Source of the DNA: a virus
Taxonomy: Duplodnaviria; Caudoviricetes
Strand: one strand, 5' to 3'
IMG/VR virus record: IMGVR_UViG_3300044724_004857
Coordinates: 1-34,834 of that record
DNA length: 34,834 nucleotides
The translations under genes and the position numbers were made by a program. Shown one piece after another: positions 8,095 to 29,640 of this stretch. Each line of letters opens with the position of its first letter. Within the stretch, counting starts at the first letter, position 1. The notes beneath the pieces are model-generated. The model ran no database searches. It was not told the origin of the DNA and was given only the letters and a program-made list of their open reading frames with translations.

Positions 8095-8156
8095 TAATAG
8101 CATAAAATACCGAGTGGAGACACGAAGATGGTAGAATACAACTTTTCATTGATATG
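8071..8156 (+). repeat. 86-bp direct repeat, copy 1 (end of fibre gene + late promoter GATAAATA + leader)
   Basis: 82/86 identical to 9221-9306. Confidence 0.95.
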
Positions 8157-8585
8157 AAAGATTCCGACATTAACTGGTCAGGTTGTAATGTAGGATGTAC
8201 CGTCAGAGGTGGTGGTAATGTGATCTATAAAAGTGGTGGTATCATCTGGATTGTAGCACCATCAGGATCAGAAGCATTCCCTGGCGGAGCATGTACTGCA
8301 TGGCCTATGGGCTACTGTAGTGGTGACCAAGGAGCTAGTCCAAAAGCAGCAACAAGAATCACTGGTCGTGATGGTTGGTTTATTCCTGATCTAGGAATGC
8401 TTCAAACTGCTTATGCATGTAGAACTTATTGGGATACTTATTCCTCAGGTCTCTATTGGAGTTCCACAGAGTACACTAACTCCGTTTTCAGGGCCATGGT
8501 CACCACGTTCGCTAATGGCACATCGTACTCCTCCACCAAGAACAGCCGCAGATTTCAGCGTCCTTTTCGGATCATATGTTATTAA
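8154..8585 (+). CDS. N-terminally truncated CLec/DUF1566-like paralog 1 (possible silent cassette or pseudogene)
   Basis: Same GWFIPDLGML...YWSSTE...FANG...RP.R domain as its three neighbours, but lacks the MAIQISG N-terminal ~61 aa and the RBS. Confidence 0.7.
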   Translation: MKDSDINWSGCNVGCTVRGGGNVIYKSGGIIWIVAPSGSEAFPGGACTAWPMGYCSGDQGASPKAATRITGRDGWFIPDLGMLQTAYACRTYWDTYSSGLYWSSTEYTNSVFRAMVTTFANGTSYSSTKNSRRFQRPFRIICY

Positions 8586-8620
8586 ATTTTGTACTTTTAA
8601 CCAAGCAGAGGAAAAGATAA

Positions 8621-9211
8621 ATGGCTATTCAGATTTCAGGAACCACTGTTATTGACAATAGTAGGAATTTTAGTTCTATTGAATCCATTAGTGGAAATGG
8701 TGTTGCAACTCAGGCAGAGGCAGAGGCAGGTACAAATAATGATCAAATAATGACTCCTTTGAGAGTTAAACAAGCTATCGAAGCGACAAGTGGTGGTGGT
8801 GGAGTAGACGACGACATTAACTGGTCAGGTTGTAATGTAGGATGTACCGTCAGAGGTGGTGGTAATGTGATCTATAAAAGTGGTGGTATCATCTGGATTG
8901 TAGCACCTTCTAGTTCACAAGATGGTTCCACATGGCCCTTAGGTTATTGTAATGGTAGTGGTGGTGCCAGTCCAAACCAAGCACAAAGAATCACTGGTCG
9001 TAGTGGTTGGTTTATTCCTGATCTAGGAATGCTTCAAACTTCTTACAATTGTAGAGCTTATTGGGATACTTATTGCGGGTGCGTCTACTGGAGTTCCACT
9101 GGGTGCTATTCCATCAGTGCACATAATCTTTGCTTCGCTAATGGGACCTATAGCAACCGCCAAACCAATGGGGGGGGGTGTGTTCGCACGATGAGGGTCA
9201 TATGCTATTGA
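8621..9211 (+). CDS. Putative receptor-binding/tail tip protein with DUF1566/CLec-like C-terminal domain, paralog 2
   Basis: MAIQISGTTVID N-terminus, ATQAEAEAGT...MTPLRV fibre repeat, Cys-rich domain with YWSST motif; GAGG RBS. Confidence 0.75.
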   Translation: MAIQISGTTVIDNSRNFSSIESISGNGVATQAEAEAGTNNDQIMTPLRVKQAIEATSGGGGVDDDINWSGCNVGCTVRGGGNVIYKSGGIIWIVAPSSSQDGSTWPLGYCNGSGGASPNQAQRITGRSGWFIPDLGMLQTSYNCRAYWDTYCGCVYWSSTGCYSISAHNLCFANGTYSNRQTNGGGCVRTMRVICY

Positions 9212-9220
9212 ATTTTATAT

Positions 9221-9306
9221 GAGGAATTAGAGAATAATAAATAATAACAGAATAAAGTACCGAGTGGAGACACGAAGATGGTAGAATACAACTTTTCATT
9301 GATATG
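9221..9306 (+). repeat. 86-bp direct repeat, copy 2
   Basis: 82/86 identical to 8071-8156; includes an orphan copy of the last codons of the 6037-8094 gene and AATAAATA. Confidence 0.95.
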
Positions 9307-9318
9307 GGAGGGTGAATA

Positions 9319-9912
9319 ATGGCTATTCAGATCTCAGGAACCACTGTTATTGACCAGAGTAGAAATATTACTAACTTTGAATCTATTTCTGGAAATGGTA
9401 TTGCAACTCAGGCAGAGGCGGAAGCAGGTACAAGTGACAATCAAATAATGACTCCATTAAGGGTCGTACAAGCAATCTCCGCACTCTCCTCTGGTGGTGG
9501 CAAAGACTCTGACATTACATGGTCAGGTTGTAATGTAGGATGTGCCGTTAGAGGTGGTGGTAATGTGATCCGTAAAACCGGTGGGATTATTTGGATTGTA
9601 GCACCATCATCGACACAAGTGAATTCGACCTGGCCTATGGGTTATTGTAATGGTGAGGGTGGTTCGGGCCCGAACCATGGCCAAAGACTTACTGGTCGTT
9701 CTGGATGGTTTCTTCCTGATCAAGGAATGCTCCAAACTGCTTATAGTTGTAGAACTTATTGGGACAGTTATTCCTCAGCCCGATATTGGAGTTCCACGGA
9801 GTGCAATTCAACCGGTGGCGTCTTCGTGCACTTCAGTAATGGAACTGTAGGCAACGTCTCCAAGGGCAACAACACCCAATGTGCTCGCACGATTCGAGTC
9901 ATATGCTATTAA
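9319..9912 (+). CDS. DUF1566/CLec-like tail protein, paralog 3
   Basis: Same architecture as 8621-9211; GGAGGG RBS at 9307. Confidence 0.75.
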   Translation: MAIQISGTTVIDQSRNITNFESISGNGIATQAEAEAGTSDNQIMTPLRVVQAISALSSGGGKDSDITWSGCNVGCAVRGGGNVIRKTGGIIWIVAPSSTQVNSTWPMGYCNGEGGSGPNHGQRLTGRSGWFLPDQGMLQTAYSCRTYWDSYSSARYWSSTECNSTGGVFVHFSNGTVGNVSKGNNTQCARTIRVICY

Positions 9913-9947
9913 ATTTTGTACTTTTAATCATACGGAGAAAGAGGTAG

Positions 9948-10544
9948 ATGGCTATTCAGATTTCGGGAACCACTGTTATTGACAACAGTAGGAATATCAC
10001 TAATTTTGAATCTGTTGCCGGAAATGGTGTTGCAACCCAGGCAGAGGCTGAAGCAGGTACAAATAATGATCAAGTAATGACCCCATTAAGGGTCGCACAA
10101 TCAGTTGCCGCAAATGCATCTAGTGGTGGAGTAGACGACGACATTAACTGGTCAGGTTGTAATGTAGGATGTGCCGTTAGAGGTGGCGGCAATGTATTCT
10201 ACAAAACTGGTGGGATTATTTGGATTGTAGCACCATCAACAGCACAAGTGTATTCGACCTGGCCTATGGGTTTTTGTAATGGTACTAGTGGTACAACTCC
10301 AAACCAAGCACAAAGAGTTACTGGTCGTGATGGATGGTTTATTGCTGATAAGTCAATGATGCAAACTGCTGTCAGTTGTCGAACTTATTGGGATACTCAT
10401 AACGAGTATGTATGCTATTGGACTTCCGCTGAGTACAACGATGGCATTGGCTGGGCTGTTAGCAGCCCATTCGCTGGTTTAAACGGTGTTTATAAGGGTT
10501 GTTGTCATTGCGTTCGGCCGATGAGGGTCATATGCTATACATAA
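9948..10544 (+). CDS. DUF1566/CLec-like tail protein, paralog 4
   Basis: Same architecture with a YWTSAE variant motif; GAGGT RBS. Confidence 0.75.
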   Translation: MAIQISGTTVIDNSRNITNFESVAGNGVATQAEAEAGTNNDQVMTPLRVAQSVAANASSGGVDDDINWSGCNVGCAVRGGGNVFYKTGGIIWIVAPSTAQVYSTWPMGFCNGTSGTTPNQAQRVTGRDGWFIADKSMMQTAVSCRTYWDTHNEYVCYWTSAEYNDGIGWAVSSPFAGLNGVYKGCCHCVRPMRVICYT

Positions 10545-12050: not shown

Positions 12051-13763
12051 ATGAACATTTTAGGACTTTATGGTGGATTTGATTGGGAAGCAAATAAATC
12101 CTTTGATGAACATCAAGATCTAACATGGACTCATGATGCAGGAGCAACACTAATTTCTAATGGAAATCACGTTACAAGTATTTCACAAGAAAGACTTACC
12201 AGAATTAAATACGATGGAAACTTTCCACAGAATTCAGTAGATTATTGTTTATCTGCAGGAAATCTTTCTTATGAAGATATTGATTTGGTTTGTGTTCCTT
12301 CAATGTGTCTTACTATTTGGTATAAACAATATTATGAAGGAAATATTCATACCAAATTAAATACATTATTTCCTAATGCAAAAATTAAATTTGTTTCTCA
12401 TCATTTAAGTCATGCAGCATCTGCAGTATTTTCATCAAATTTCAATGAGGGTTCATTTTTAGTTCTTGATGGTGCTGGTTCACTTTTATATGATTATAGT
12501 TATCGAGATGTACAACATGTTGAGACCAATTCAATAGGATATTTTAATAAAGAAAAAGGTATCTTTAGATTTTTTCCAGGTCTTCCAAATGTAAATGAAT
12601 TTGGTGAGTACTATCACTCATTGTCCCATAAAATCTATTGTGAAAAAATACAAAGACAAATTAATGGTTATGATGAAAAATATAGAGAATCTTGGGATGG
12701 TAAAATCATGGGACTTTCTGCATATGGAAGTCATCTAAAATTCACAGAAGATCTCAAAGACTATCAACTCTCAAAAGAGCTTACTTATGAAGATTTACCA
12801 TATGTAACTTTTAACAGTAGACTCTATAAAGAAAATCACACATTTAAGAATGCTGACGAAAAAGCATATATTCTCCAAAGAAATTTTGAATGTGCTTTGA
12901 TTGATTATGTAACCGAACTGAAAGAGAAATCTTATCTTGATGATTATATTTGTCTTGCTGGAGGTTCATTTTTAAATGTTCTTGGAAATAGTCTTTTAAA
13001 GCAAAGTGGTTTATTTGAAGACATTCATGTTCCACCGTATCCTAATGATGTAGGATTGCATTTTGGTGCTGCTTGTTTTGGCGCATTTCAAAATAAAGAA
13101 GAAATCAATCTTCCAAACAACATTGCACTTCTTGGTAAAGAATATACACAAGACACTATTGAACAACAATTAATGGCATGTGATACGAAATACAAGAAGT
13201 ATGAGAACTTTGAAGAACTTTGTGAATTTGCTGCACAAGAACTTAATAAAAATAAAATTATTGGCTGGTTTCAGAATAGAAGTGAATTTGGCCCAAGAGC
13301 ATTAGGTTCTAGGTCACTTCTCATGCATCCTGGTCCAGCAAAAAATAAGGACATCATGAACTCTAGAGTGAAACATAGAGAATATTGGAGACCTTTTGCT
13401 GGTATTGTTCTTGAAGAACACCTTAATGATTACTTTGAAGAAGATTTCTGTTCCCCCTATATGTTGTATTCACTTACAGTAAAAGAAGAAAAGAGAGGTG
13501 AGATTGGTGCTATTACTCATGTAGACAATACCTGTAGAATTCAAACAGTCACTAAAGAACTTCAACCAGAAGTTACTACATTGATTCAAAAGTTCAAAGA
13601 AGTTTCTGGTATTCCTGTAGTTCTTAACACTTCATTTAATGATAACGGAGAACCTATCGTAGAAACACCAGAAGATGCAATTAACGCATTCAATAATCTT
13701 GATATTGATTATCTAGTGATTGGTAATTATGTTGTTAAGAAAAGTGAGATGATTTATTCATGA
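12051..13763 (+). CDS. Carbamoyltransferase (NodU/CmcH/TobZ family)
   Basis: HDAGA, ERLTRIK, HHLSHA, DGAG, GKIMGLSAYG, EFGPRALGSRS, KHREYWRPFA, HVDNTCRIQTV, LNTSFN. Confidence 0.92.
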   Translation: MNILGLYGGFDWEANKSFDEHQDLTWTHDAGATLISNGNHVTSISQERLTRIKYDGNFPQNSVDYCLSAGNLSYEDIDLVCVPSMCLTIWYKQYYEGNIHTKLNTLFPNAKIKFVSHHLSHAASAVFSSNFNEGSFLVLDGAGSLLYDYSYRDVQHVETNSIGYFNKEKGIFRFFPGLPNVNEFGEYYHSLSHKIYCEKIQRQINGYDEKYRESWDGKIMGLSAYGSHLKFTEDLKDYQLSKELTYEDLPYVTFNSRLYKENHTFKNADEKAYILQRNFECALIDYVTELKEKSYLDDYICLAGGSFLNVLGNSLLKQSGLFEDIHVPPYPNDVGLHFGAACFGAFQNKEEINLPNNIALLGKEYTQDTIEQQLMACDTKYKKYENFEELCEFAAQELNKNKIIGWFQNRSEFGPRALGSRSLLMHPGPAKNKDIMNSRVKHREYWRPFAGIVLEEHLNDYFEEDFCSPYMLYSLTVKEEKRGEIGAITHVDNTCRIQTVTKELQPEVTTLIQKFKEVSGIPVVLNTSFNDNGEPIVETPEDAINAFNNLDIDYLVIGNYVVKKSEMIYS

Positions 13764-14548
13764 AACCAATACATGTATTTTTAAGACATTGCTACTACTC
13801 TAAACTTCAAGAACTTCCAACAAGAAACAGACCAGTTTGGTTCAATAAAGAAAAAGTATTTGAAAACTTTAAGAATACAATAGACCCTGAACTTGCAGAT
13901 TATACTATTGTATATGATGAACACTTTGGTCCTGTTGAAGATACTTTTCTTAAAGATGAAAAGAATGTAGAAATTATCAACTGTGGAAAAGAGACTACAA
14001 GTTTCTTAAAGACACTGGATGTTGTTCAATCTAAAAACTTTAATGATGATAAGATTATATATTTTTTAGAAGACGATTATCTACATCGTCCAAACTGGTG
14101 TAGAGTAGTCATAGAAGGATTAAGTATTGACAATCTACCATTTAATATTGATTATGTTTCATTGAGTGATTTTCAATTTCTTTATGGTATTGAGGAGTAT
14201 AATAAACTTCTATACACTAAATCTACACATTGGAAATCTTCAACAGGATCTACAAATACATTTGCAACAAAGTATAAAACATTAAAAGAGGATATGAATG
14301 TTCATCAGTACTTTTCACTAAATCCATATGTGAATATTGAAACAGGAGAAAATGTAGAACAATCATTAGACTTTGATAAATTCCAATCTCTTATGAGTAA
14401 GAAAGATAGAAAACTAATTTCTCCTATTCCTGGTTACTCTACACATTGTCAAACTGGTAAAAGAATAGGTGATCATCTGTCCCCATGTGTCAGGTGGGAA
14501 GACTACCTAAATATTTCCAAATCGAATAATACTTTATTATATTCATGA
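13760..14548 (+). CDS. Glycosyltransferase-like protein (GT-A fold)
   Basis: IIYFLEDDYLH DxD-type motif and SPIPGYSTH; cluster context. Confidence 0.65.
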   Translation: MKPIHVFLRHCYYSKLQELPTRNRPVWFNKEKVFENFKNTIDPELADYTIVYDEHFGPVEDTFLKDEKNVEIINCGKETTSFLKTLDVVQSKNFNDDKIIYFLEDDYLHRPNWCRVVIEGLSIDNLPFNIDYVSLSDFQFLYGIEEYNKLLYTKSTHWKSSTGSTNTFATKYKTLKEDMNVHQYFSLNPYVNIETGENVEQSLDFDKFQSLMSKKDRKLISPIPGYSTHCQTGKRIGDHLSPCVRWEDYLNISKSNNTLLYS

Positions 14549-15528
14549 GTACTGTAATTGTTATCAGTGGTGGAGTTGGAAGGGCAGTAGCAGCAATACC
14601 AGCACTTCTAAAGTATCATAAAAATCATCTAGATGAAGAGTGGTATGTGATGGTTCATGGTTGGGATTTTATGTTCTGGGGATTTCCAGAACTTCAGGAA
14701 AGAACATTTAATCCTGATGATAAGTCGGTGTTTAAAAATTACTTTTGGAATGCTACTAAAGTTCTCGTGCCAGAACCATATTGCCTTCCCGCATACTATA
14801 GGAATGAGATCTCATTAAGAGAAGCATTTGATATTGAAATTAATGGTTCTACTGATGATTTGCCAGAAATGCAGTTGAAGCTTTCTATGACTGAAATTAG
14901 AAGTGGTCATAGAGTCATTGCAGAAGCAAAGAACCAACAAAAGAAAAATAAAACCATAGTAATTCAACCTTATGGAAGTGCGGCACTCATATGTCCATTA
15001 GAAATCTTTGATGATACTCTAAGATCCATTCCACAAAAAATGTATCTGACTCTCGTCAAAAAACTATCAAAAGATTATAATATCATCTATATGGGTGCAA
15101 AGGAGTTTTATGATGGAAAAACATATAAACCAGATCCAGATCCATCATTAAGAGAATGGGCAGGAGTAATTAAAGTCGCAGATTACTTTATTGGATGTGA
15201 TAGTTGTGGTCAACATTTTGCAAAGGCAGTAGGTCAAAATGCCTCTGTAATGGTCGCAGGAACCCATAAGAACAACACCACATATCCTGATACATTTCAT
15301 ATTATTGAGAGGGATCATAAGTTTCATCCAGATGCTATGAGAGTCTCACAAATTCAAGCACAACTTTCTACAAGATTGAATGAGGAAAGGTGTATGTTCA
15401 CTGATGAAGAGATTGAGAGTGCCTATCAAACTATTATTCAAAGAATTGAGGGTAAAAAGAAAGTTGAGATTAATGAGATTGAAGAATGGAAAACCAATTT
15501 GAATCAACAAAACTTACTTTATAACTAA
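14545..15528 (+). CDS. Glycosyltransferase family 9 (heptosyltransferase)-like protein
   Basis: N-terminal GGVGR.V.AIPAL, IVIQPYG and ADYFIGCDSCGQHFAKA (GT9 DS-x3-H-x-A motif). Confidence 0.7.
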   Translation: MSTVIVISGGVGRAVAAIPALLKYHKNHLDEEWYVMVHGWDFMFWGFPELQERTFNPDDKSVFKNYFWNATKVLVPEPYCLPAYYRNEISLREAFDIEINGSTDDLPEMQLKLSMTEIRSGHRVIAEAKNQQKKNKTIVIQPYGSAALICPLEIFDDTLRSIPQKMYLTLVKKLSKDYNIIYMGAKEFYDGKTYKPDPDPSLREWAGVIKVADYFIGCDSCGQHFAKAVGQNASVMVAGTHKNNTTYPDTFHIIERDHKFHPDAMRVSQIQAQLSTRLNEERCMFTDEEIESAYQTIIQRIEGKKKVEINEIEEWKTNLNQQNLLYN

Positions 15529-15530
15529 TC

Positions 15531-17150
15531 ATGAATATTTTATCAATCAACTATGGACTTCATGATTCATCTGCTTGTATTTTAAAAGACGGTAAAGTTG
15601 CAGTTTATTTTAAGGAAGAAAGGTTGAGTGGGATAAAAAGGGACAATAGTCCTAAATTTGCAATAGATAGATGCATAAAAAACTTTAATGAAAAAATAGA
15701 CGATACTCTGGTCATCTCATATCCAAATTCCAAACCATATAGAAAACTGACATCTAAATTCTCAAATACAAACAATAATATAGTTGAATTTAGTTATAAT
15801 CATCATTTATGCCATGCAAGTTTGGCATTTTACAATAGTGGATTTGAAAAATCTGTTGTAGTAGTTGTAGATGGTCAAGGTTCAATTTATGCAGATAATT
15901 TGATAGAATCTGAGACAGTTTATCTTGCTTCTTACCCATATAATTTTGAGTGTCTAATTAAAAACCTGTCAACCAAAAAACAATCTTCTAGTGAAAAGTA
16001 TAAAGATAATATAGTTCCTCATAAAAATTATGAATGCAATATTAATGAAAATGAGGGTGGTATAGTTAATGTTTATAATACTGCATCGAGTTTAATATCT
16101 CAAGGAGTTCTTGAGAATGGAAAAACTATGGGATTAAGTTCTTATGGCTCTAAAACAAGTTATCCAAACTTTTTTAATGAAAGTTCTCAACCAGATTGGA
16201 GTTTATTTACAGACAAAAAACCACATAAAAGATTACTTAAAGGTCATGAAGATGAAGTAACTGAAGAACTTACTGAAGAAAATTATAAGTTTTATGCAGA
16301 CTATGCTTATGAAGTTCAAAAACAAACTCAAGAATCAGTTGGAAATTTGATAGAAAAGGCAATTCAAAAAAGTGGTTGTAAAAATGTTTCTATTGTTGGT
16401 GGTTATGGAATGAATATTGTTGCAAATCATTATTATACTCAAAGATTTCCTGATGTGAATTTTTATTTTGAACCAAATTCAGATGATGGTGGTTTATCTA
16501 TCGGTGCCGCTATGTTTTATTATCATGCACTTACAAAAGATAAAACAATTAGACCATTAAAAACTACAGCATTCCATGGTGTTCCATATGATATTTCCCA
16601 ATATAAAGGAAAAACTACATCAGTAGAAGAAATTGCAAAACTTTTATATCAAGATAAATCTGTTGCAGTTTATACTGGATTTGCAGAAACAGGACAAAGA
16701 GCATTAGGAAATAGATCAATCTTATTCAACGCATTGAATCCAAATGCCAAAGAAATTGTCAATGAAATTAAAAATAGAGAGTGGTATAGACCATTTGCTG
16801 CAATGGTTTTAGAAGAAGATGCAAATATCTATTTTGATATGGGAAGGATTAAATCAAGTCCTTTTATGACTATAAGTTTTCCAGTGAGACCAGAATATGT
16901 TTCAGTAATACCTGGAGTAACACATGTAGATAATACTTGTAGAATACAAACTATTTCAAAAGATAATGGTTATGTTTATGACCTTCTTCATGAGTTTAAA
17001 AAACTAACAGGTTATGGTATAATCTTAAATACGAGTTTCAATCTTGCTGGAGATCCACTAGTGGAAACCCCAGAAGATGCAGTTAAAACATTAAATGATT
17101 GTTCTTTAGATTATTTGTGGTTTGAAGAAACACAACAATTATTCGATTAA
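15531..17150 (+). CDS. Second carbamoyltransferase (NodU/CmcH family)
   Basis: HDSSA, EERLS, HHLCHA, DGQG, GKTMGLSSYG, GQRALGNRS, REWYRPFA, HVDNTCRIQT, LNTSFN. Confidence 0.92.
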   Translation: MNILSINYGLHDSSACILKDGKVAVYFKEERLSGIKRDNSPKFAIDRCIKNFNEKIDDTLVISYPNSKPYRKLTSKFSNTNNNIVEFSYNHHLCHASLAFYNSGFEKSVVVVVDGQGSIYADNLIESETVYLASYPYNFECLIKNLSTKKQSSSEKYKDNIVPHKNYECNINENEGGIVNVYNTASSLISQGVLENGKTMGLSSYGSKTSYPNFFNESSQPDWSLFTDKKPHKRLLKGHEDEVTEELTEENYKFYADYAYEVQKQTQESVGNLIEKAIQKSGCKNVSIVGGYGMNIVANHYYTQRFPDVNFYFEPNSDDGGLSIGAAMFYYHALTKDKTIRPLKTTAFHGVPYDISQYKGKTTSVEEIAKLLYQDKSVAVYTGFAETGQRALGNRSILFNALNPNAKEIVNEIKNREWYRPFAAMVLEEDANIYFDMGRIKSSPFMTISFPVRPEYVSVIPGVTHVDNTCRIQTISKDNGYVYDLLHEFKKLTGYGIILNTSFNLAGDPLVETPEDAVKTLNDCSLDYLWFEETQQLFD

Positions 17151-18979: not shown

Positions 18980-19315
18980 ATGGAAAAACTGAATAAGAAT
19001 GATATTGTATCTCCAGTCAATTATGATGTGAATGATTTTCCTTTTCTGACTTATGAGCAACTTTTAGTCCTAAGACTTGAAGTTGCAGAAAGACTCACAA
19101 AACAGATGAGTGAAGAGGAAAAGTTTGAATTTGTTAAGGAAAGTACTTACCACAGTCTACCATTACAACATATTGAGATTCAAGGATTATTGATTAGATG
19201 TGGTGCTGGTGATTTACTTGATCAAGTATTGAAAGAAATTCTTGGAGAAGATTACAAACAAACTGCAAAGAAGACTTCTGAGATCAGAAGAGAAAACGGT
19301 GATCCACCACTATAG
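18980..19315 (+). CDS. Hypothetical protein
   Basis: 111-aa ORF tightly packed in the operon. Confidence 0.6.
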   Translation: MEKLNKNDIVSPVNYDVNDFPFLTYEQLLVLRLEVAERLTKQMSEEEKFEFVKESTYHSLPLQHIEIQGLLIRCGAGDLLDQVLKEILGEDYKQTAKKTSEIRRENGDPPL

Positions 19316-19326
19316 TTCCACTTCTT

Positions 19327-19377
19327 AAACTGTCCACCAAATACCCTGCAGGAGTACCCTGTGGGGTATTGTAGTAT
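19327..19377 (+). promoter_or_regulatory. AACTGTCCAC box + stem-loop + -10-like element
   Basis: AAACTGTCCAC, then hairpin AATACCCTGCAGG/CCTGTGGGGTATT, then TAGTAT. Confidence 0.45.
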
Positions 19378-19396
19378 CTGGAGGTACATAGACACT

Positions 19397-19498
19397 ATGA
19401 GACTTACAGGAACAGAAAAACTATTATTCATCTCTTCCTTCCTTATCTTCCTACAATGGGGTGTAAGACTTACAGAGAGGGTTCTGATAGGGTTCTAA
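19397..19498 (+). CDS. Small hydrophobic protein (33 aa, MRLTGTEKLLFISSFLIFLQWG...)
   Basis: Translated by hand; GGAGGT RBS upstream; one TM-like segment. Confidence 0.5.
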   Translation: MRLTGTEKLLFISSFLIFLQWGVRLTERVLIGF

Positions 19499-19528
19499 AT
19501 ACAGGGTCTATACCTGACAATATGGATG

Positions 19529-19551
19529 AAAAACCCCCTCTGGGGGTTTTT
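19529..19551 (+). terminator. Rho-independent terminator-like hairpin (potentially bidirectional)
   Basis: AAAAACCCCC-TCT-GGGGGTTTTT perfect 10-bp inverted repeat. Confidence 0.7.
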
Positions 19552-19597
19552 GTTACACCACTCTAATGATAAATAGAGTTGTCAGGTATAAGATACT

Positions 19598-20113
19598 ATG
19601 AATAACTATTACACCTACATGTATTGTAGAGAGGATGGAACCCCCTACTATATTGGTAAAGGTAAGACAACCAGGATACATTCTGACAGACACACAGTAG
19701 GTCTCCCTCCTAAAGAAAGGAGAAAGTTTCTGAAAACCTGTCTAACAGAAGAAGAAAGTCTGAGACATGAAAAATACATGATAAGTGTATTGGGAAGAAA
19801 AGATATAGGAACAGGCCTGTTACACAATAGGACTGATGGGGGAGAAAGTGGTGGAAGGGGTTGTATCCCCTCTGAAGAAACCAGAAAGAAAATGAGGGAA
19901 AAGAAGTGCGGAGAAAATAACCCTAACTGGAAAGGGGGACACTCAAAAAACTACCTCAGAAGAACCTCTAAGAAACCACATAGGAAACCCTCTATCAAGG
20001 AACCCTCTGGACACTGGAGAGGAAAACATATTTCTGAACTAACTCCTGAGGAAAAGGAGGAAAGAAAGTGGGAGATATATGATAAGAGAATGAATACCCT
20101 TAGTAACCTATAA
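19598..20113 (+). CDS. Free-standing GIY-YIG/Seg-like homing endonuclease with NUMOD3-like motif
   Basis: YYTY...PYYIGKG...R...E...N.TDGGE catalytic domain; SEETRKKM...GENNPNW motif; GATAAATA late promoter at 19568-19575. Confidence 0.8.
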   Translation: MNNYYTYMYCREDGTPYYIGKGKTTRIHSDRHTVGLPPKERRKFLKTCLTEEESLRHEKYMISVLGRKDIGTGLLHNRTDGGESGGRGCIPSEETRKKMREKKCGENNPNWKGGHSKNYLRRTSKKPHRKPSIKEPSGHWRGKHISELTPEEKEERKWEIYDKRMNTLSNL

Positions 20114-20233
20114 TATATCCTTATCAACCTCAACAAACCTATTCTATACACATATAAGTCAGTTTGTCAAGTGTCCATGGTCCTACCATTCTCTGTGTGG
20201 GTATGATATAGTTCTATCAGTTACACACAAACT

Positions 20234-20581
20234 ATGGTTCATTCATTGGAGGTGGTTAGACCTTCATCTGACACCTCAGAAACCCTCTGTAGGCAGTTGT
20301 TTCATTGGTTTATGATGGAATACCTACCTGATAGGAGTATTGACCTTACAGTAGTTCATATGGACTTAACTGATGAGGGTGTGGATGGATGGTGTATGAG
20401 GGAGAGTGATTATGAGTTTATTATTCAAATAGAGGAAACTCTTGAGGGTAATGAATACACCAGAACTCTTCTTCATGAGTATTATCATCTTATGCAACAT
20501 GTTCTGAATATTTCCAGGTGTGAGACCTGTGCATATCTCAGCGAAAAGATAAACCTTGACAAGTTAAACAAACTCCAGTAG
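20234..20581 (+). CDS. HEXXH zinc metallopeptidase-like protein
   Basis: DGWC...TLLHEYYHLMQ motif. Confidence 0.6.
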   Translation: MVHSLEVVRPSSDTSETLCRQLFHWFMMEYLPDRSIDLTVVHMDLTDEGVDGWCMRESDYEFIIQIEETLEGNEYTRTLLHEYYHLMQHVLNISRCETCAYLSEKINLDKLNKLQ

Positions 20582-20584
20582 GAT
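20556..20584 (+). promoter_or_regulatory. Sigma70-like early promoter
   Basis: TTGACA-17 nt-TAGGAT upstream of 20626. Confidence 0.5.
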
Positions 20585-21044: not shown

Positions 21045-21070
21045 ATAGACATATCCAGGAAAGATTGTTC

Positions 21071-21385
21071 ATGTTGTCAACACAGTACAGACTGAAACTT
21101 GAGTTTATTTGCAAATGTATTGCTAATGGTGAAGAAGTAAAATTGTCTGATATGATCTGGGCAAATAAACTTGCCAAGGCAAATACATCTGCAAATGAGA
21201 TGTTAAAGATGGCAAGACGCCAACACTCTCAAAACATTGAAGAAGGTAGTATGGATGACTTCATGAACCGTATGGGACTAGGGGATCCTGATCCAGCAAA
21301 CCACAAGACAGGATTTGATAGTGCTGATGATATTAAAGACTGGTTTAAGAGAGATGATATTTCTGACTGGAGGCAAAGAGATTAA
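21071..21385 (+). CDS. Hypothetical phage protein
   Basis: ATG 21071 preferred (MLSTQYRLKLEFICK...DWRQRD). Confidence 0.65.
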   Translation: MLSTQYRLKLEFICKCIANGEEVKLSDMIWANKLAKANTSANEMLKMARRQHSQNIEEGSMDDFMNRMGLGDPDPANHKTGFDSADDIKDWFKRDDISDWRQRD

Positions 21386-21570
21386 TGCCACATGAATTTG
21401 ATCCATGCGAAGCACCTGTAGGGGGTAAAGTTGATAAGTGGGGATTTACAATTAAACCTACTATCACTGACACAGAATTAATACTCATGTGTTTAAGAAA
21501 TGCTCCCTGTGGAGCAGACAAAAAACAGGCAGAAAGATTGGTTAAATACTATGAACAAAATCCTGATTAA
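21385..21570 (+). CDS. Hypothetical protein
   Basis: 61-aa ORF coupled to the upstream stop (TAATG). Confidence 0.55.
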   Translation: MPHEFDPCEAPVGGKVDKWGFTIKPTITDTELILMCLRNAPCGADKKQAERLVKYYEQNPD

Positions 21571-21572
21571 TT

Positions 21573-21710
21573 ATGTCTAAAGAACAATGGCAAGAAGTTA
21601 TTTTGTGTGTTAAGAAAGAACAGGACAAATCTCTTCAACACATGAACAAACCAAAGTATAATGAATTGAGTGAAATTTTAGTTCAACTACAAAAACTACA
21701 AAATACCTAA
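21573..21710 (+). CDS. Small hypothetical protein (45 aa, MSKEQWQEVILCVK...)
   Basis: Translated by hand; exactly fills the gap between neighbours. Confidence 0.5.
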   Translation: MSKEQWQEVILCVKKEQDKSLQHMNKPKYNELSEILVQLQKLQNT

Positions 21711-21711
21711 T

Positions 21712-21960
21712 ATGTCTAAAACTGCAGTCATTTATACAGATGGAAGTCAAGAATGTGAGAGAATGGGTTCTCTTCTCACCACACTTCCAGAAGTGTCTGA
21801 ATTTTTACAGTACAGATTAGGTGAACATTTCACAGAGAAGTCATTCTTTGATGAATTTGGTGATGAAGCAACATTTCCACAAGTCGCAATTGGAAATGAA
21901 CATATCGGGAGTATGAAAGAAACTCTCCAATTCCTATCAAGTGAAGGTTATTATGATTAG
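21712..21960 (+). CDS. Glutaredoxin-like protein (single Cys)
   Basis: AVIYT...C...TFPQV.IG..HIGS; CxxC reduced to SQEC. Confidence 0.6.
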   Translation: MSKTAVIYTDGSQECERMGSLLTTLPEVSEFLQYRLGEHFTEKSFFDEFGDEATFPQVAIGNEHIGSMKETLQFLSSEGYYD

Positions 21961-22204
21961 TACAGAAACTAAAGAAGTTGTTGTGCCCGAAGGTGCAGAA
22001 TTGGTTGATGATGTATTCTATGTCTGGGAGACTAGGTATGGATTATATTCATCAATGACCAAACAAGGTCGAAAGATGATAACAGGAATGTATAAAGATA
22101 ATGTTACACTAATGACACGTTGGCATCTCCAATGTGAACAAGATGGTACTTTAGATCAATATACAAGAGTCGTTGGTAGTGCCACCATGGGTGTCAAACT
22201 GTAA
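21953..22204 (+). CDS. Hypothetical phage protein
   Basis: ATG 21953 preferred over GTG 21941. Confidence 0.6.
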   Translation: MISTETKEVVVPEGAELVDDVFYVWETRYGLYSSMTKQGRKMITGMYKDNVTLMTRWHLQCEQDGTLDQYTRVVGSATMGVKL

Positions 22205-22207
22205 CAG

Positions 22208-22236
22208 TTTACAGTTACTGATTAAAGTTGTATAAT
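22208..22236 (+). promoter_or_regulatory. Sigma70-like promoter
   Basis: TTTACA-17 nt-TATAAT; GAGG RBS follows. Confidence 0.55.
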
Positions 22237-22259
22237 TATTACATTGAGGAAAAACTTGA

Positions 22260-22484
22260 ATGAAACTACTTACACTTGAAGACTACCAAAAGGCAGGAGA
22301 AACTTTCTGGCCAAAATACTTTTATGTTGCCAAAGAACTTGGTGAAAGTTCTAAACCAGAAGACATCCTAAAAGTTATGGAAGCTGTTGGTGGTGTAGCA
22401 CTCAAGTTGAGATTGGAAGAGGATAGGTCTGGTCCTTTTGGATTCAACAAAAAGAAAGAGGATAGGGAAGATGAAGTCATCTGA
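22260..22484 (+). CDS. Hypothetical phage protein
   Basis: 74-aa ORF with RBS and promoter. Confidence 0.65.
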   Translation: MKLLTLEDYQKAGETFWPKYFYVAKELGESSKPEDILKVMEAVGGVALKLRLEEDRSGPFGFNKKKEDREDEVI

Positions 22485-23566: not shown

Positions 23567-23782
23567 ATGGAAAAAACTATCGAGGACCATATTGATAAGG
23601 ATAAGAATATCCTTGATGATCCCACTATCTCACCTCAACAACGTCGTCACATTGAATCTGAACTTCATGACCTTGAAGAGTATCATGAGCACAATCCAGA
23701 AGACCATCATGATCCCACTCCACTAGAAATGTATTGTGATGCCAATCCTTCTGAACCAGAATGTTTGGTTTATGAAGACTGA
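23567..23782 (+). CDS. cp12: CP12 Calvin-cycle inhibitor (phage-type, C-terminal Cys pair only)
   Basis: C-terminal PLEMYCDANPSEPECLVYED motif; AATAAATA at 23538-23545. Confidence 0.9.
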   Translation: MEKTIEDHIDKDKNILDDPTISPQQRRHIESELHDLEEYHEHNPEDHHDPTPLEMYCDANPSEPECLVYED

Positions 23783-23802
23783 ACCAATTGAATAAGTGTC
23801 AC

Positions 23803-23829
23803 AAAGAGGGTTGAAAGACCCTCTTTTTT
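23803..23829 (+). terminator. Terminator hairpin overlapping a sigma70-like promoter
   Basis: AAAGAGGGTT-GAAA-GACCCTCTTT plus T-run; TTGAAA(23811)-17 nt-TATTAT(23834). Confidence 0.65.
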
Positions 23830-23840
23830 ATTGTATTATT

Positions 23841-23871
23841 GTTAGTAACCCCCAAAGTGTCCCAGTAGTGA
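23841..23871 (+). repeat. Intergenic cassette element, copy 1
   Basis: GTTAGTAACCCCCAAAGTGTCCCAGTAGTGA. Confidence 0.9.
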
Positions 23872-23885
23872 AACCACCCAAGATT

Positions 23886-24767
23886 ATGAAACTCAATACC
23901 CACCAGCAACACCCAGAGGATATGATCCTGACTGGTGATCTGTCCATCATTGATGAACTCTACAAAGAGAACTTCATCTCGGTAAAAATAGATGGAAGCC
24001 CGGCTGTGGTTTGGGGCACACATCCAGAAAATGGTGAGTTCTTTGTAGGGACTAAATCTGTCTTCAACAAAAAGAAAATCCGTATCTGTTACACCGAAGA
24101 AAATATTAGAGAGTATTACAATCACCAACCAGAAGTTGAGGAAATCCTTCTTGATTGTTTGAAGTATCTCCCTCGTACTGAAGGAGTTTATCAAGGAGAT
24201 TATCTGGGGACAGGAGGATCTGATACATACAAACCTAATACCATTGAATATGTTTTTGATGAGATTGTAACTGAAAACATCATCATTGCTCCTCACACAT
24301 ATTACACTGGTGATTGTCCCCTCTATGAGATGGAAGCTCATTCACTAGAAGGTGAACTTTGTGAGACTAATGATTGTAAGTTCGTTCAACCTTTTGTTGA
24401 CCGTGTAAACTGTAACATTACTGCTCCAGTTATTGACACTAACGACTATACATTCCTCACAGAGAAAGAGGCTTACCAGGCAAAGGTTGCCATCAATGCT
24501 CTTATCAGGTCTGGACAGAAACTTCATGAGGTAGACTTGATTGACATCCTTGGTTCACTCCGACTTGCTAATCTTTACCTACTGGTTGTTGAGATGAAGG
24601 AGGAACTTATGGAGGATATGATTGTCTACAACTGCCCTAAGTCTTACATTGGAGGACTAAAAGTCAATCAAGAAGGGTTTGTTATGTCCACAGAGTATGG
24701 TATGATTAAGCTTGTAAACAGGGACCAGTTCTCTTATGCAAACTTCACACAGGGTAGATTTCAATGA
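23886..24767 (+). CDS. DUF6267-like protein with ligase/nucleotidyltransferase-like motifs
   Basis: NTH..HPED N-terminus, KIDG, YQGD, EGFV, IKLVNR; ATG 23886 lies 45 nt after the start of the repeat element. Confidence 0.6.
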   Translation: MKLNTHQQHPEDMILTGDLSIIDELYKENFISVKIDGSPAVVWGTHPENGEFFVGTKSVFNKKKIRICYTEENIREYYNHQPEVEEILLDCLKYLPRTEGVYQGDYLGTGGSDTYKPNTIEYVFDEIVTENIIIAPHTYYTGDCPLYEMEAHSLEGELCETNDCKFVQPFVDRVNCNITAPVIDTNDYTFLTEKEAYQAKVAINALIRSGQKLHEVDLIDILGSLRLANLYLLVVEMKEELMEDMIVYNCPKSYIGGLKVNQEGFVMSTEYGMIKLVNRDQFSYANFTQGRFQ

Positions 24768-28948: not shown

Positions 28949-28968
28949 GTATGTCCGCCAAGACAACT

Positions 28969-29640
28969 ATGAAAGAATATTATACTTATGCCTATCTTCG
29001 CGAAGATGGAACACCTTACTACATAGGGAAAGGTCAAGGAGATAGAATAACTAGAAAACACTATCGTAGGGATGGTGGATATTTTAGTGCCCCAAAGGAT
29101 ACGAATAGAATATTATATCTGAAACGAAATCTGTCAGAACAAGAGGCATTTAGACACGAACAATATATGATTAGTGTCTATGGGCGTAAAGATATTGGCA
29201 CAGGCATACTACGAAACCGCACAGATGGTGGTGAAGGTCCGACTGGCAAAGTTTTAAGTGAAGAAACAAAGAAAAGGATTAGTGAGTTTCAAAGGGGCAA
29301 ACCTAAATGGTCTGACGCCGATAAAGAAAGAATTAAACAACAAGTCACAGGCAGATGGGAAACATATAGTGAAGAGAAGAAAGATATTATTAGACAAAAA
29401 CTAAAAGAGAATCACGGTGGTGGTTCTTCGGGTGATAGAAATGCCAAGTCAATAGGGTGGCGAATTTATCATAAATGTGGTAAAATAACGGAGATGGTAG
29501 GTATATCTAATTGGGCAAAATCTAATGGTTACATTCAGGCACATATAATTGCGGTAAGAGATGGTAAGAGAAAGTATCACAAAGACATCATAAAGGTGGA
29601 GAGACTAAATAAAAATATAATCAAAGTAACCAGTTTTTGA
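28969..29640 (+). CDS. Free-standing GIY-YIG/Seg-like homing endonuclease with NUMOD3-like motif
   Basis: YYTYAYLREDGTPYYIGKG...EAFRHE...NRTDGGEG; SEETKKRIS; ATG 28969 aligns with the paralog start. Confidence 0.8.
   Translation: MKEYYTYAYLREDGTPYYIGKGQGDRITRKHYRRDGGYFSAPKDTNRILYLKRNLSEQEAFRHEQYMISVYGRKDIGTGILRNRTDGGEGPTGKVLSEETKKRISEFQRGKPKWSDADKERIKQQVTGRWETYSEEKKDIIRQKLKENHGGGSSGDRNAKSIGWRIYHKCGKITEMVGISNWAKSNGYIQAHIIAVRDGKRKYHKDIIKVERLNKNIIKVTSF

Follow-up and report, generated by a model that had tools for sequence, protein, structure and literature searches.

A kilobase stretch depleted of GpC, CpG and RATY around a putative homing nuclease cassette in a T4-like cyanophage

The DNA analyzed in this work, hereafter the window, is a 34,834-nt stretch (IMG/VR record IMGVR_UViG_3300044724_004857) whose genes match those of T4-like cyanophages, and judged by these genes the virus is a T4-like cyanophage. 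Where large structural and metabolic genes give way to a cluster of small genes, a stretch begins that is almost devoid of the dinucleotides GpC and CpG and of the tetranucleotide RATY (Table 1). The following elements are arranged along this desert: a promoter-like motif, a 33-aa ORF, an insertion cassette with a nuclease gene, a gene for a 115-aa HEXXH protein, and the next promoter match. The first motif, which probably acts as an early promoter, recurs in relatives where the desert has its left edge, and the 33-aa ORF is annotated as a CDS in phages S-B05 and S-SM2. Homologues of the 115-aa gene open the small-gene cluster in S-B05, S-SM2, P-TIM68 and SynMITS9220M01; those of S-SM2 and P-SSM2 are annotated with PF06114, and the atlas lead for this protein stands at 20% of one cluster. 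The 5' end of this gene is hypervariable among alleles over its first ~20 codons (20234-20300), with indels, and is a possible cleavage target.

Table 1. Features of the depleted locus and of the paralogous nuclease gene in the window
Feature	Position	Strand	Basis or remark
GpC/CpG/RATY desert	19302..20493		4 GC, 1 CG, 1 RATY; motif positions and counts
Early promoter-like motif CACTT..AAACTGTCCAC, inverted repeat, TAGTAT	19319..19378	+	First position of the small-gene cluster
33-aa hydrophobic ORF	19397..19498	+	Conserved ahead of the 115-aa gene (alignment)
Polymorphic insertion cassette (~750 bp)	19481..20233	+	2 GC vs 28.9 expected
Cassette leader with 12-bp inverted repeat (19509-19520 / 19579-19590)	19509..19590	+	Flanks a terminator-like hairpin (19529-19551)
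Ala-free GIY-YIG-fold nuclease with candidate NUMOD3 motif (171 aa), putative free-standing homing endonuclease	19598..20113	+	Profiles, fold, residues
Sigma70-type promoter match (11/12)	20141..20170	-	Points into the nuclease gene
Promoter-like piece carried by the cassette, with a new start (ATG GTT CAT) of the 115-aa gene	20171..20212	+	Common to loci L456 and L030
115-aa HEXXH protein, Peptidase_M78-like lead	20234..20581	+	Homologues and alignment
Next sigma70-type promoter match	20556..20584	+	Approximate right end of the desert
Unpurged paralogous nuclease (internal control)	28951..29640	+	18 GC, 9 Ala, GpC o/e 0.82

The assignment of the cassette gene was based on profiles, a predicted fold and conserved residues. 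Its product matches a PHROG homing endonuclease family (E=1e-6) and, slightly below the cut-off (19.9 vs 20.4 bits, E=7e-4), the Pfam family NUMOD3, which would supply a C-terminal DNA-binding module; many of its homologues carry PF07460, and a sequence search against PDB gave no match. The AlphaFold model has a pLDDT of about 90 across residues 1-60, the top 8 Foldseek rows are all UvrC GIY-YIG domains (E 0.07-0.33), and the VIA-align Z-scores are 7.2 for PD-T4-3, 5.9 for UvrC and 5.3 for I-TevI. These scores are middling but mutually consistent and point to a GIY-YIG nuclease fold. The residues Y17, Y18, G20, R26, H57, E58 and N77, invariant across 58 aligned sequences, presumably correspond by position to the catalytic roles in I-TevI. 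By its sequence, the gene thus resembles the members of the free-standing GIY-YIG homing endonucleases, and is putatively one of them.

The protein contains no alanine, as an earlier note on this DNA had reported from the sequence, and the replacements which that note had seen relative to the paralogue (YAY to YMY, EAF to ESL) were confirmed: alanine occupies these two sites in 17/17 and 16/16 aligned homologues outside the desert clade. Among the best 120 of 1,394 matches, 10 homologues have at most one alanine. The five of this kind that are included form one branch, with a support of 95, in a quick tree of 111 of the 120 homologues and the two window proteins. The C-termini within this clade diverge widely, yet all are alanine-poor.

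The cassette is an intergenic insertion within the first early operon and is polymorphic in nature. A joint 19480>20267 that skips 786 nt was observed in contigs from 3 of 4 public runs, filled and empty alleles co-occur in the same runs, and both are also found among relatives. The cassette leader folds as RNA with z = -4.64, recurs nearly identically at another locus, L456, and contains TAAATA at 19570-19575, which we take to be late-promoter-like by consensus. A layout of hairpin and late promoter is described for T4 homing endonucleases in the accessible text of PMC2988022. The reverse-strand promoter match within the cassette may have an antisense role, as its direction suggests. At the start of the 115-aa gene, the motif TGCA is kept in all six nuclease-free alleles examined and is replaced in three cassette-bearing alleles and in one allele with a cassette remnant, so a GpC may belong to the cut site of the nuclease.

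The depletion itself is well beyond what composition predicts. Between 19350 and 20490 (1,141 nt) there are 3 GC and 1 CG against 43.9 of each expected from base composition, exactly the counts of the earlier note; its comparison with bases 1-960 also stood for CG (10), while GC is 15 there instead of about 14. The lowest other window of 1,141 nt in the contig has 12 GC+CG, and a third-order Markov model of the contig, simulated 200 times, gave a minimum of 13, vs 4 in the desert. RATY is missing as well (AATT 0, GATC 0, AATC/GATT 1; simulated minimum 9), with none from 19301 to 20408, and ATAT, TATA, CATG and GTAC are retained. The G+C content of the desert is raised rather than lowered (0.40 vs 0.36 for the remaining contig). 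The left part of the desert consists of the early promoter-like motif and the 33-codon ORF, which had been left out of the ORF list. The desert had been described as extending into intergenic DNA and both flanking genes; the intergenic part was borne out, but the upstream 111-aa gene lies outside (GC 4 vs 4.4 expected, RATY 12 vs 9.8). Among the GpC-poor stretches of the window, a 262-aa ORF at 13760 ranks second.

A codon-aware null, in which the protein is held fixed, was used to separate the local signal from general codon habits. In the nuclease ORF, GpC is not below the lineage habit under this null (2 vs 3.9, p=0.23), in contrast to CpG (1 vs 8.1) and RATY (0 vs 7.8); the signal therefore resides in the lost invariant alanines, the non-coding DNA, CpG and RATY. 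Pooling seven purged ORFs gave 11 GpC vs 32.3, and pooling 13 non-coding pieces gave 3 GpC vs 56.9 (P about 3e-6 even at a background o/e of 0.35), these pieces having been chosen after the deserts were seen and being interrelated rather than independent. As this depletion exceeds the lineage background, a local force acts on top of a genome-wide bias. RATY is not generally depleted in the window (genome-wide o/e 0.90), and the combined loss of CpG and RATY is present in the sub-lineage of the window and absent from the S-B05 cassette described below.

The link between the desert and a mobile nuclease, proposed in the earlier note, holds in relatives and proved to be wider than claimed, since several unrelated cargo folds are purged. 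In the lineage of the window, cassettes with four types of cargo are all GpC-poor: GIY-YIG, HNH, NUMOD4-HNH and PD-(D/E)xK-like. The alanine-poor GIY-YIG type occupies four insertion points in the early region and is GpC-poor at each. At L456 (5330-5990), the leader and insertion site of the window are combined with a different cargo, a zinc-finger and PD-(D/E)xK-like nuclease (Pfam E 0.08, atlas TM about 0.75; no relatives of it were found beyond itself), which contains 0 Ala and 2 GpC vs 20.1 expected; the cassette thus swaps nuclease folds behind one leader. An alanine-free HNH cassette before gp32 forms the longest GpC-poor stretch in the whole S-B05 genome (1,294 bp; next 639). This cassette, with 0 GpC (L074:5978-7013, S-B05 185,978-187,013), is present in the cultured phages S-B05 and S-B43, near-identical DNA is carried by RB11-B and S-H68, and in RN05-S the HNH gene is absent and there is no desert at gp32. 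Locus L027 has a purged NUMOD4-HNH gene, whose leader carries a GIY-YIG cargo elsewhere.

The same comparison shows the limits of the association. Close nuclease-free alleles retain a shorter desert of ~500 bp (4-5 GpC vs 19-20 expected, 1-3 CpG, 0-2 RATY of 11), which covers a single operon where the small-gene cluster begins. Locus L472 has a nuclease of the same family at the site of the window and comes from a lineage with GpC o/e 0.81; this gene retains 16 GpC where 19 are expected, and its product has 6 Ala. The expectation that homologues would lie in deserts and empty alleles would not was accordingly borne out for the alanine-poor homologues and failed for L472 and the nuclease-free alleles. 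Among 27 nuclease-like ORFs from 17 genomes or contigs, only four have a GpC o/e <=0.15, and the proposition that all homing nucleases lie in deserts was rejected. The purged ORFs fall among the ten from the lineage of the window or from cmoX carriers (4/10, two of them identical copies) vs 0/17 from cmoX-negative genomes; four nuclease ORFs in cmoX carriers are not purged. Conversely, a nuclease ORF was found in 12 of 22 distinct GpC-free stretches, including 9 of the 11 strongest, in a screen of 511 loci that are redundant and enriched by the manner of fetching. A second insertion hot spot lies before a DUF6267 gene: in the window it is empty and mildly GpC-poor (23782-23890), in relatives (L026:5061-5906, L027:9232-10149, L446) it holds GIY-YIG or NUMOD4-HNH genes behind one leader, and in L448:4480-4780 an unrelated 82-aa ORF.

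GpC is also the target of a cytosine modification in S-B43, one of the closest cultured relatives. According to the available part of PMC12783734, the CmoX enzyme of this phage attaches a carboxymethyl group to the cytosine of GC motifs and CmoY then joins glycine to it; in the phage, some 75% of these sites carry the modification. The closest cultured relatives, S-B43, S-B05, RB11-B and RN05-S, all encode cmoA-cmoY-cmoX; the four best cultured matches of the 115-aa gene, all from cmoX carriers, have 60.7-61.6% identity, the next 42.7%. In S-B05 and RN05-S, a C5-methylase-like gene adjoins a methyltransferase and an asparagine-synthase-like gene, and the S-B05 protein is 100% identical to CmoX of S-B43. 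cmoX was looked for and not found in seven more distant cyanophages, nor was it found in the 35-kb window, in the contigs G001 and G002, or in five other long related contigs (G019-G023), all of which are fragments. In identity tables, the close relative G001 has core genes most similar to those of the cmoX clade (gp59 69% vs 35-59%; gp32 73-80% vs 51-69% for others). At 21065-22484, in its early region, the window has the genes that come immediately after cmoX in S-B05 and in most contigs with cmoX; six cmoX loci (L246, L252, L253, L255, L258, L272) are without these genes beside them and may belong to the type of the window. A cmoX cluster and the window type occur at similar depths in the same four runs, a co-abundance that is only suggestive of a link between cmoX and the window phage.

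Like the cmoX carriers, the window avoids synonymous GpC genome-wide, with Lys, Glu and Gln codons ending in G at a fraction of 0.08 before C vs 0.35 before A. ACG-2014f avoids GpC genome-wide with a similar codon ratio, no C5 methylase or cmoX being detected in it, and its gp32 HNH gene is half-depleted (GpC o/e 0.32); S-CRM01 and G003 have cmoX, and in them no kilobase desert and no nuclease ORF were detected. In the accessible text of PMC8256090, marine phage contigs are described with GpC-directed cytosine modification by C5-methyltransferase/TET systems, so another GpC system is conceivable in the window phage. A TET gene was found in 0/5 records searched, and a TET-type system was rejected. 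A D12-type adenine methylase as the cause of RATY loss was also found in 0/5 records; N6/N4 methylases were present only in P-SSM2 and P-TIM68 among five records. As to other motifs, CTAG is wholly absent from S-SM2, P-TIM68 has a CpG o/e of 0.11, and ACG-2014f avoids AATT as well as GpC.

The desert is real and partly explained. The purged stretches have in common that they presumably move by homing, or adjoin sites of cassette insertion, in a GpC-avoiding lineage. Our working explanation, plausible but tentatively held, is that DNA copied by homing, the cassette with its flanks, is selected to lack GpC, the predicted modified site of this lineage. For this, the window phage would also have cmoX. 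The nuclease would cut alleles that lack the cassette, close to where the 115-aa gene begins, and repair would copy the cassette with a few hundred bases of flank. A donor tract carrying the bulky glycyl-carboxymethyl-cytosine might be copied less well; alternatively, a modified tract might be destroyed by a modification-dependent host nuclease and a clean one survive. As the modified tract would be disfavoured in both cases, every homing event would favour GpC-free versions, even to the point of removing conserved alanines. Co-conversion and later cassette loss would leave the shorter desert of nuclease-free alleles, and recent arrivals, such as the paralogue at 28951, would not yet be purged. 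The loss of CpG and RATY is not explained by CmoX; in the sub-lineage concerned it would reflect further modified or restricted motifs. Against copy selection counts the homing of T4 endonucleases on modified DNA, as given in the accessible part of PMC2988022.

Several rival explanations were weighed against selection on the copied tract. Mutational erosion, in which modified GpC cytosines deaminate, faster in DNA that is often single-stranded through cutting, resection and repair at homing hot spots, so that weakly constrained nucleases lose GpC and alanine with no selection on the motif, is unlikely yet draws on several observations: synonymous GpC is low genome-wide, the excess change at fourfold GpC sites consists of transitions (20/85) and not transversions (9/85) in a small, not properly polarised comparison, and a first transition can lead to ATG and AGT, the codons that now stand at the two sites where alanine was lost. 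It fits poorly with a G+C content that is not lowered and with GG/CC above the codon null (67 vs 44); moreover, it does not cover the RATY loss, and the catalytic domain is still conserved. The demands of immediate-early transcription are an improbable cause. The unmodified host RNA polymerase would have to read the first early operon and an antisense transcript over the nuclease from fully modified incoming DNA, and the operon would therefore be kept free of modified sites. The extent of the nuclease-free-allele desert, the 11/12 antisense promoter match and the statement in the part of PMC12783734 at hand that base modifications can affect transcription speak for it. In cmoX carriers, however, the DNA 100-1000 bp downstream from promoters of the TTGACA type is not depleted, a general purge behind early promoters being absent beyond the promoter itself, and in L475 and L479 the purge tracks the nuclease more than the operon.

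The earlier note had favoured self-immunity, with cutting at a very short GC/CG-containing motif. It is taken here to mean that the nuclease cuts a short GpC-containing motif near its binding or production site and that its own locus was purged. The TGCA replaced at the insertion point, the hypervariable 5' end of the 115-aa gene, the single clade formed by the alanine-poor nucleases and a top structural match to a modification-specific GIY-YIG enzyme agree with it. On the other side, the same cassette and others like it are equally purged when they carry unrelated folds, nuclease-free alleles are purged too, same-family genes elsewhere are not, and a change of cut site would probably need tens of bases rather than 1.1 kb, to judge from I-TevI-type enzymes. 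In view of the nuclease-free deserts, the unrelated cargo and the unpurged L472, this cause is mostly unsupported, and we regard it as slightly more improbable than the transcriptional one. Still less probable is restriction of the fresh homing product, whose tract would be unmodified on both strands and cut by host enzymes with GC, CG, GATC and AATT cores. It would cover CpG and RATY, and all depleted motifs are self-complementary apart from the non-palindromic AATC/GATT, the loss of which speaks against it; ATAT and TATA are kept, but so are CATG and GTAC, and GpC is lost in all contexts. Import was the alternative offered in the earlier note, from a lineage under strong restriction pressure. 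An origin in a wholly GpC-free phage lineage is very improbable: the cassettes are mobile and sharp-edged, but no such donor was found among 481 loci of at least 4 kb (lowest locus-wide GpC o/e 0.37), native flanking genes are graded in their purge across relatives, and the divergent C-termini of the alanine-poor clade are all still alanine-poor. Two further candidates were discarded. An RNA-level (mRNase) or alanine-tRNA cause was rejected because non-coding DNA and self-complementary motifs are also affected by the loss. In T5/T7-type phages, the first-entering DNA is poor in restriction sites, a local loss of enzyme-recognised motifs within a special stretch that is similar to the present one; here, in contrast, deserts occur at several internal sites and track nuclease cassettes, and neither evidence for a genome terminus nor relevant literature was found.

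Interference competition by a phage homing nuclease has reportedly been a topic of study. Among described systems, the T4-like Seg-family GIY-YIG homing endonucleases (PMC2988022) are alike in the GIY-YIG fold, to which a NUMOD3 tail may be added, the intergenic insertion, the late-promoter-like motif within a hairpin, the presence/absence polymorphism and the expected co-conversion of flanks. They differ in that the accessible text describes no motif purge of gene and flanks, that the window leader carries swappable unrelated folds, and that cleavage and homing are putative here. The CmoA-CmoX-CmoY system of S-B43 (PMC12783734) shares the GpC motif and the clade of closest cultured relatives, and S-B43 has its own 0-GpC HNH cassette; its genes are absent from the window, and the part of the report at hand treats protection from restriction and leaves GpC-free zones unmentioned. 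The C5-methyltransferase/TET systems, as far as the partial text of PMC8256090 covers them, are alike in GpC-directed cytosine modification and differ by the TET, which none of the five records searched contained. In the literature covered, which excludes most subscription journals, no account was found of motif-free nuclease cassettes or of GpC-free zones in cmoX phages.

If selection on the copied tract is the right reading, phage hypermodification imposes on mobile DNA a cost large enough to alter protein sequences, and modification motifs and long-resident homing elements of uncultured phages could be predicted from sequence only. A broader and more doubtful idea is that selfish nuclease cassettes are modification-free islands that drop the epigenetic motif of their phage whatever their cargo, even at the cost of every alanine, which would ease copying, expression or survival between modified and unmodified phages. 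Were this true, deserts would reveal both modification motifs (GpC and further CpG and RATY marks) and actively homing elements. S-B43 or S-B05, with the 0-GpC HNH cassette, and RN05-S, with the empty allele, form a cultured pair whose modification enzymes are published.

Outside the small-gene cluster, the window contains four tandem paralogous ORFs (143-198 aa) at 8154-10544, which follow a tail-fibre-like gene and have a common Cys/Gly-rich C-terminal domain. A variable island at 12051-17150 includes one sulfotransferase-like ORF, several 2OG-Fe(II)-oxygenase-like ORFs and two ORFs that we take, by their motifs, to be carbamoyltransferase-like.
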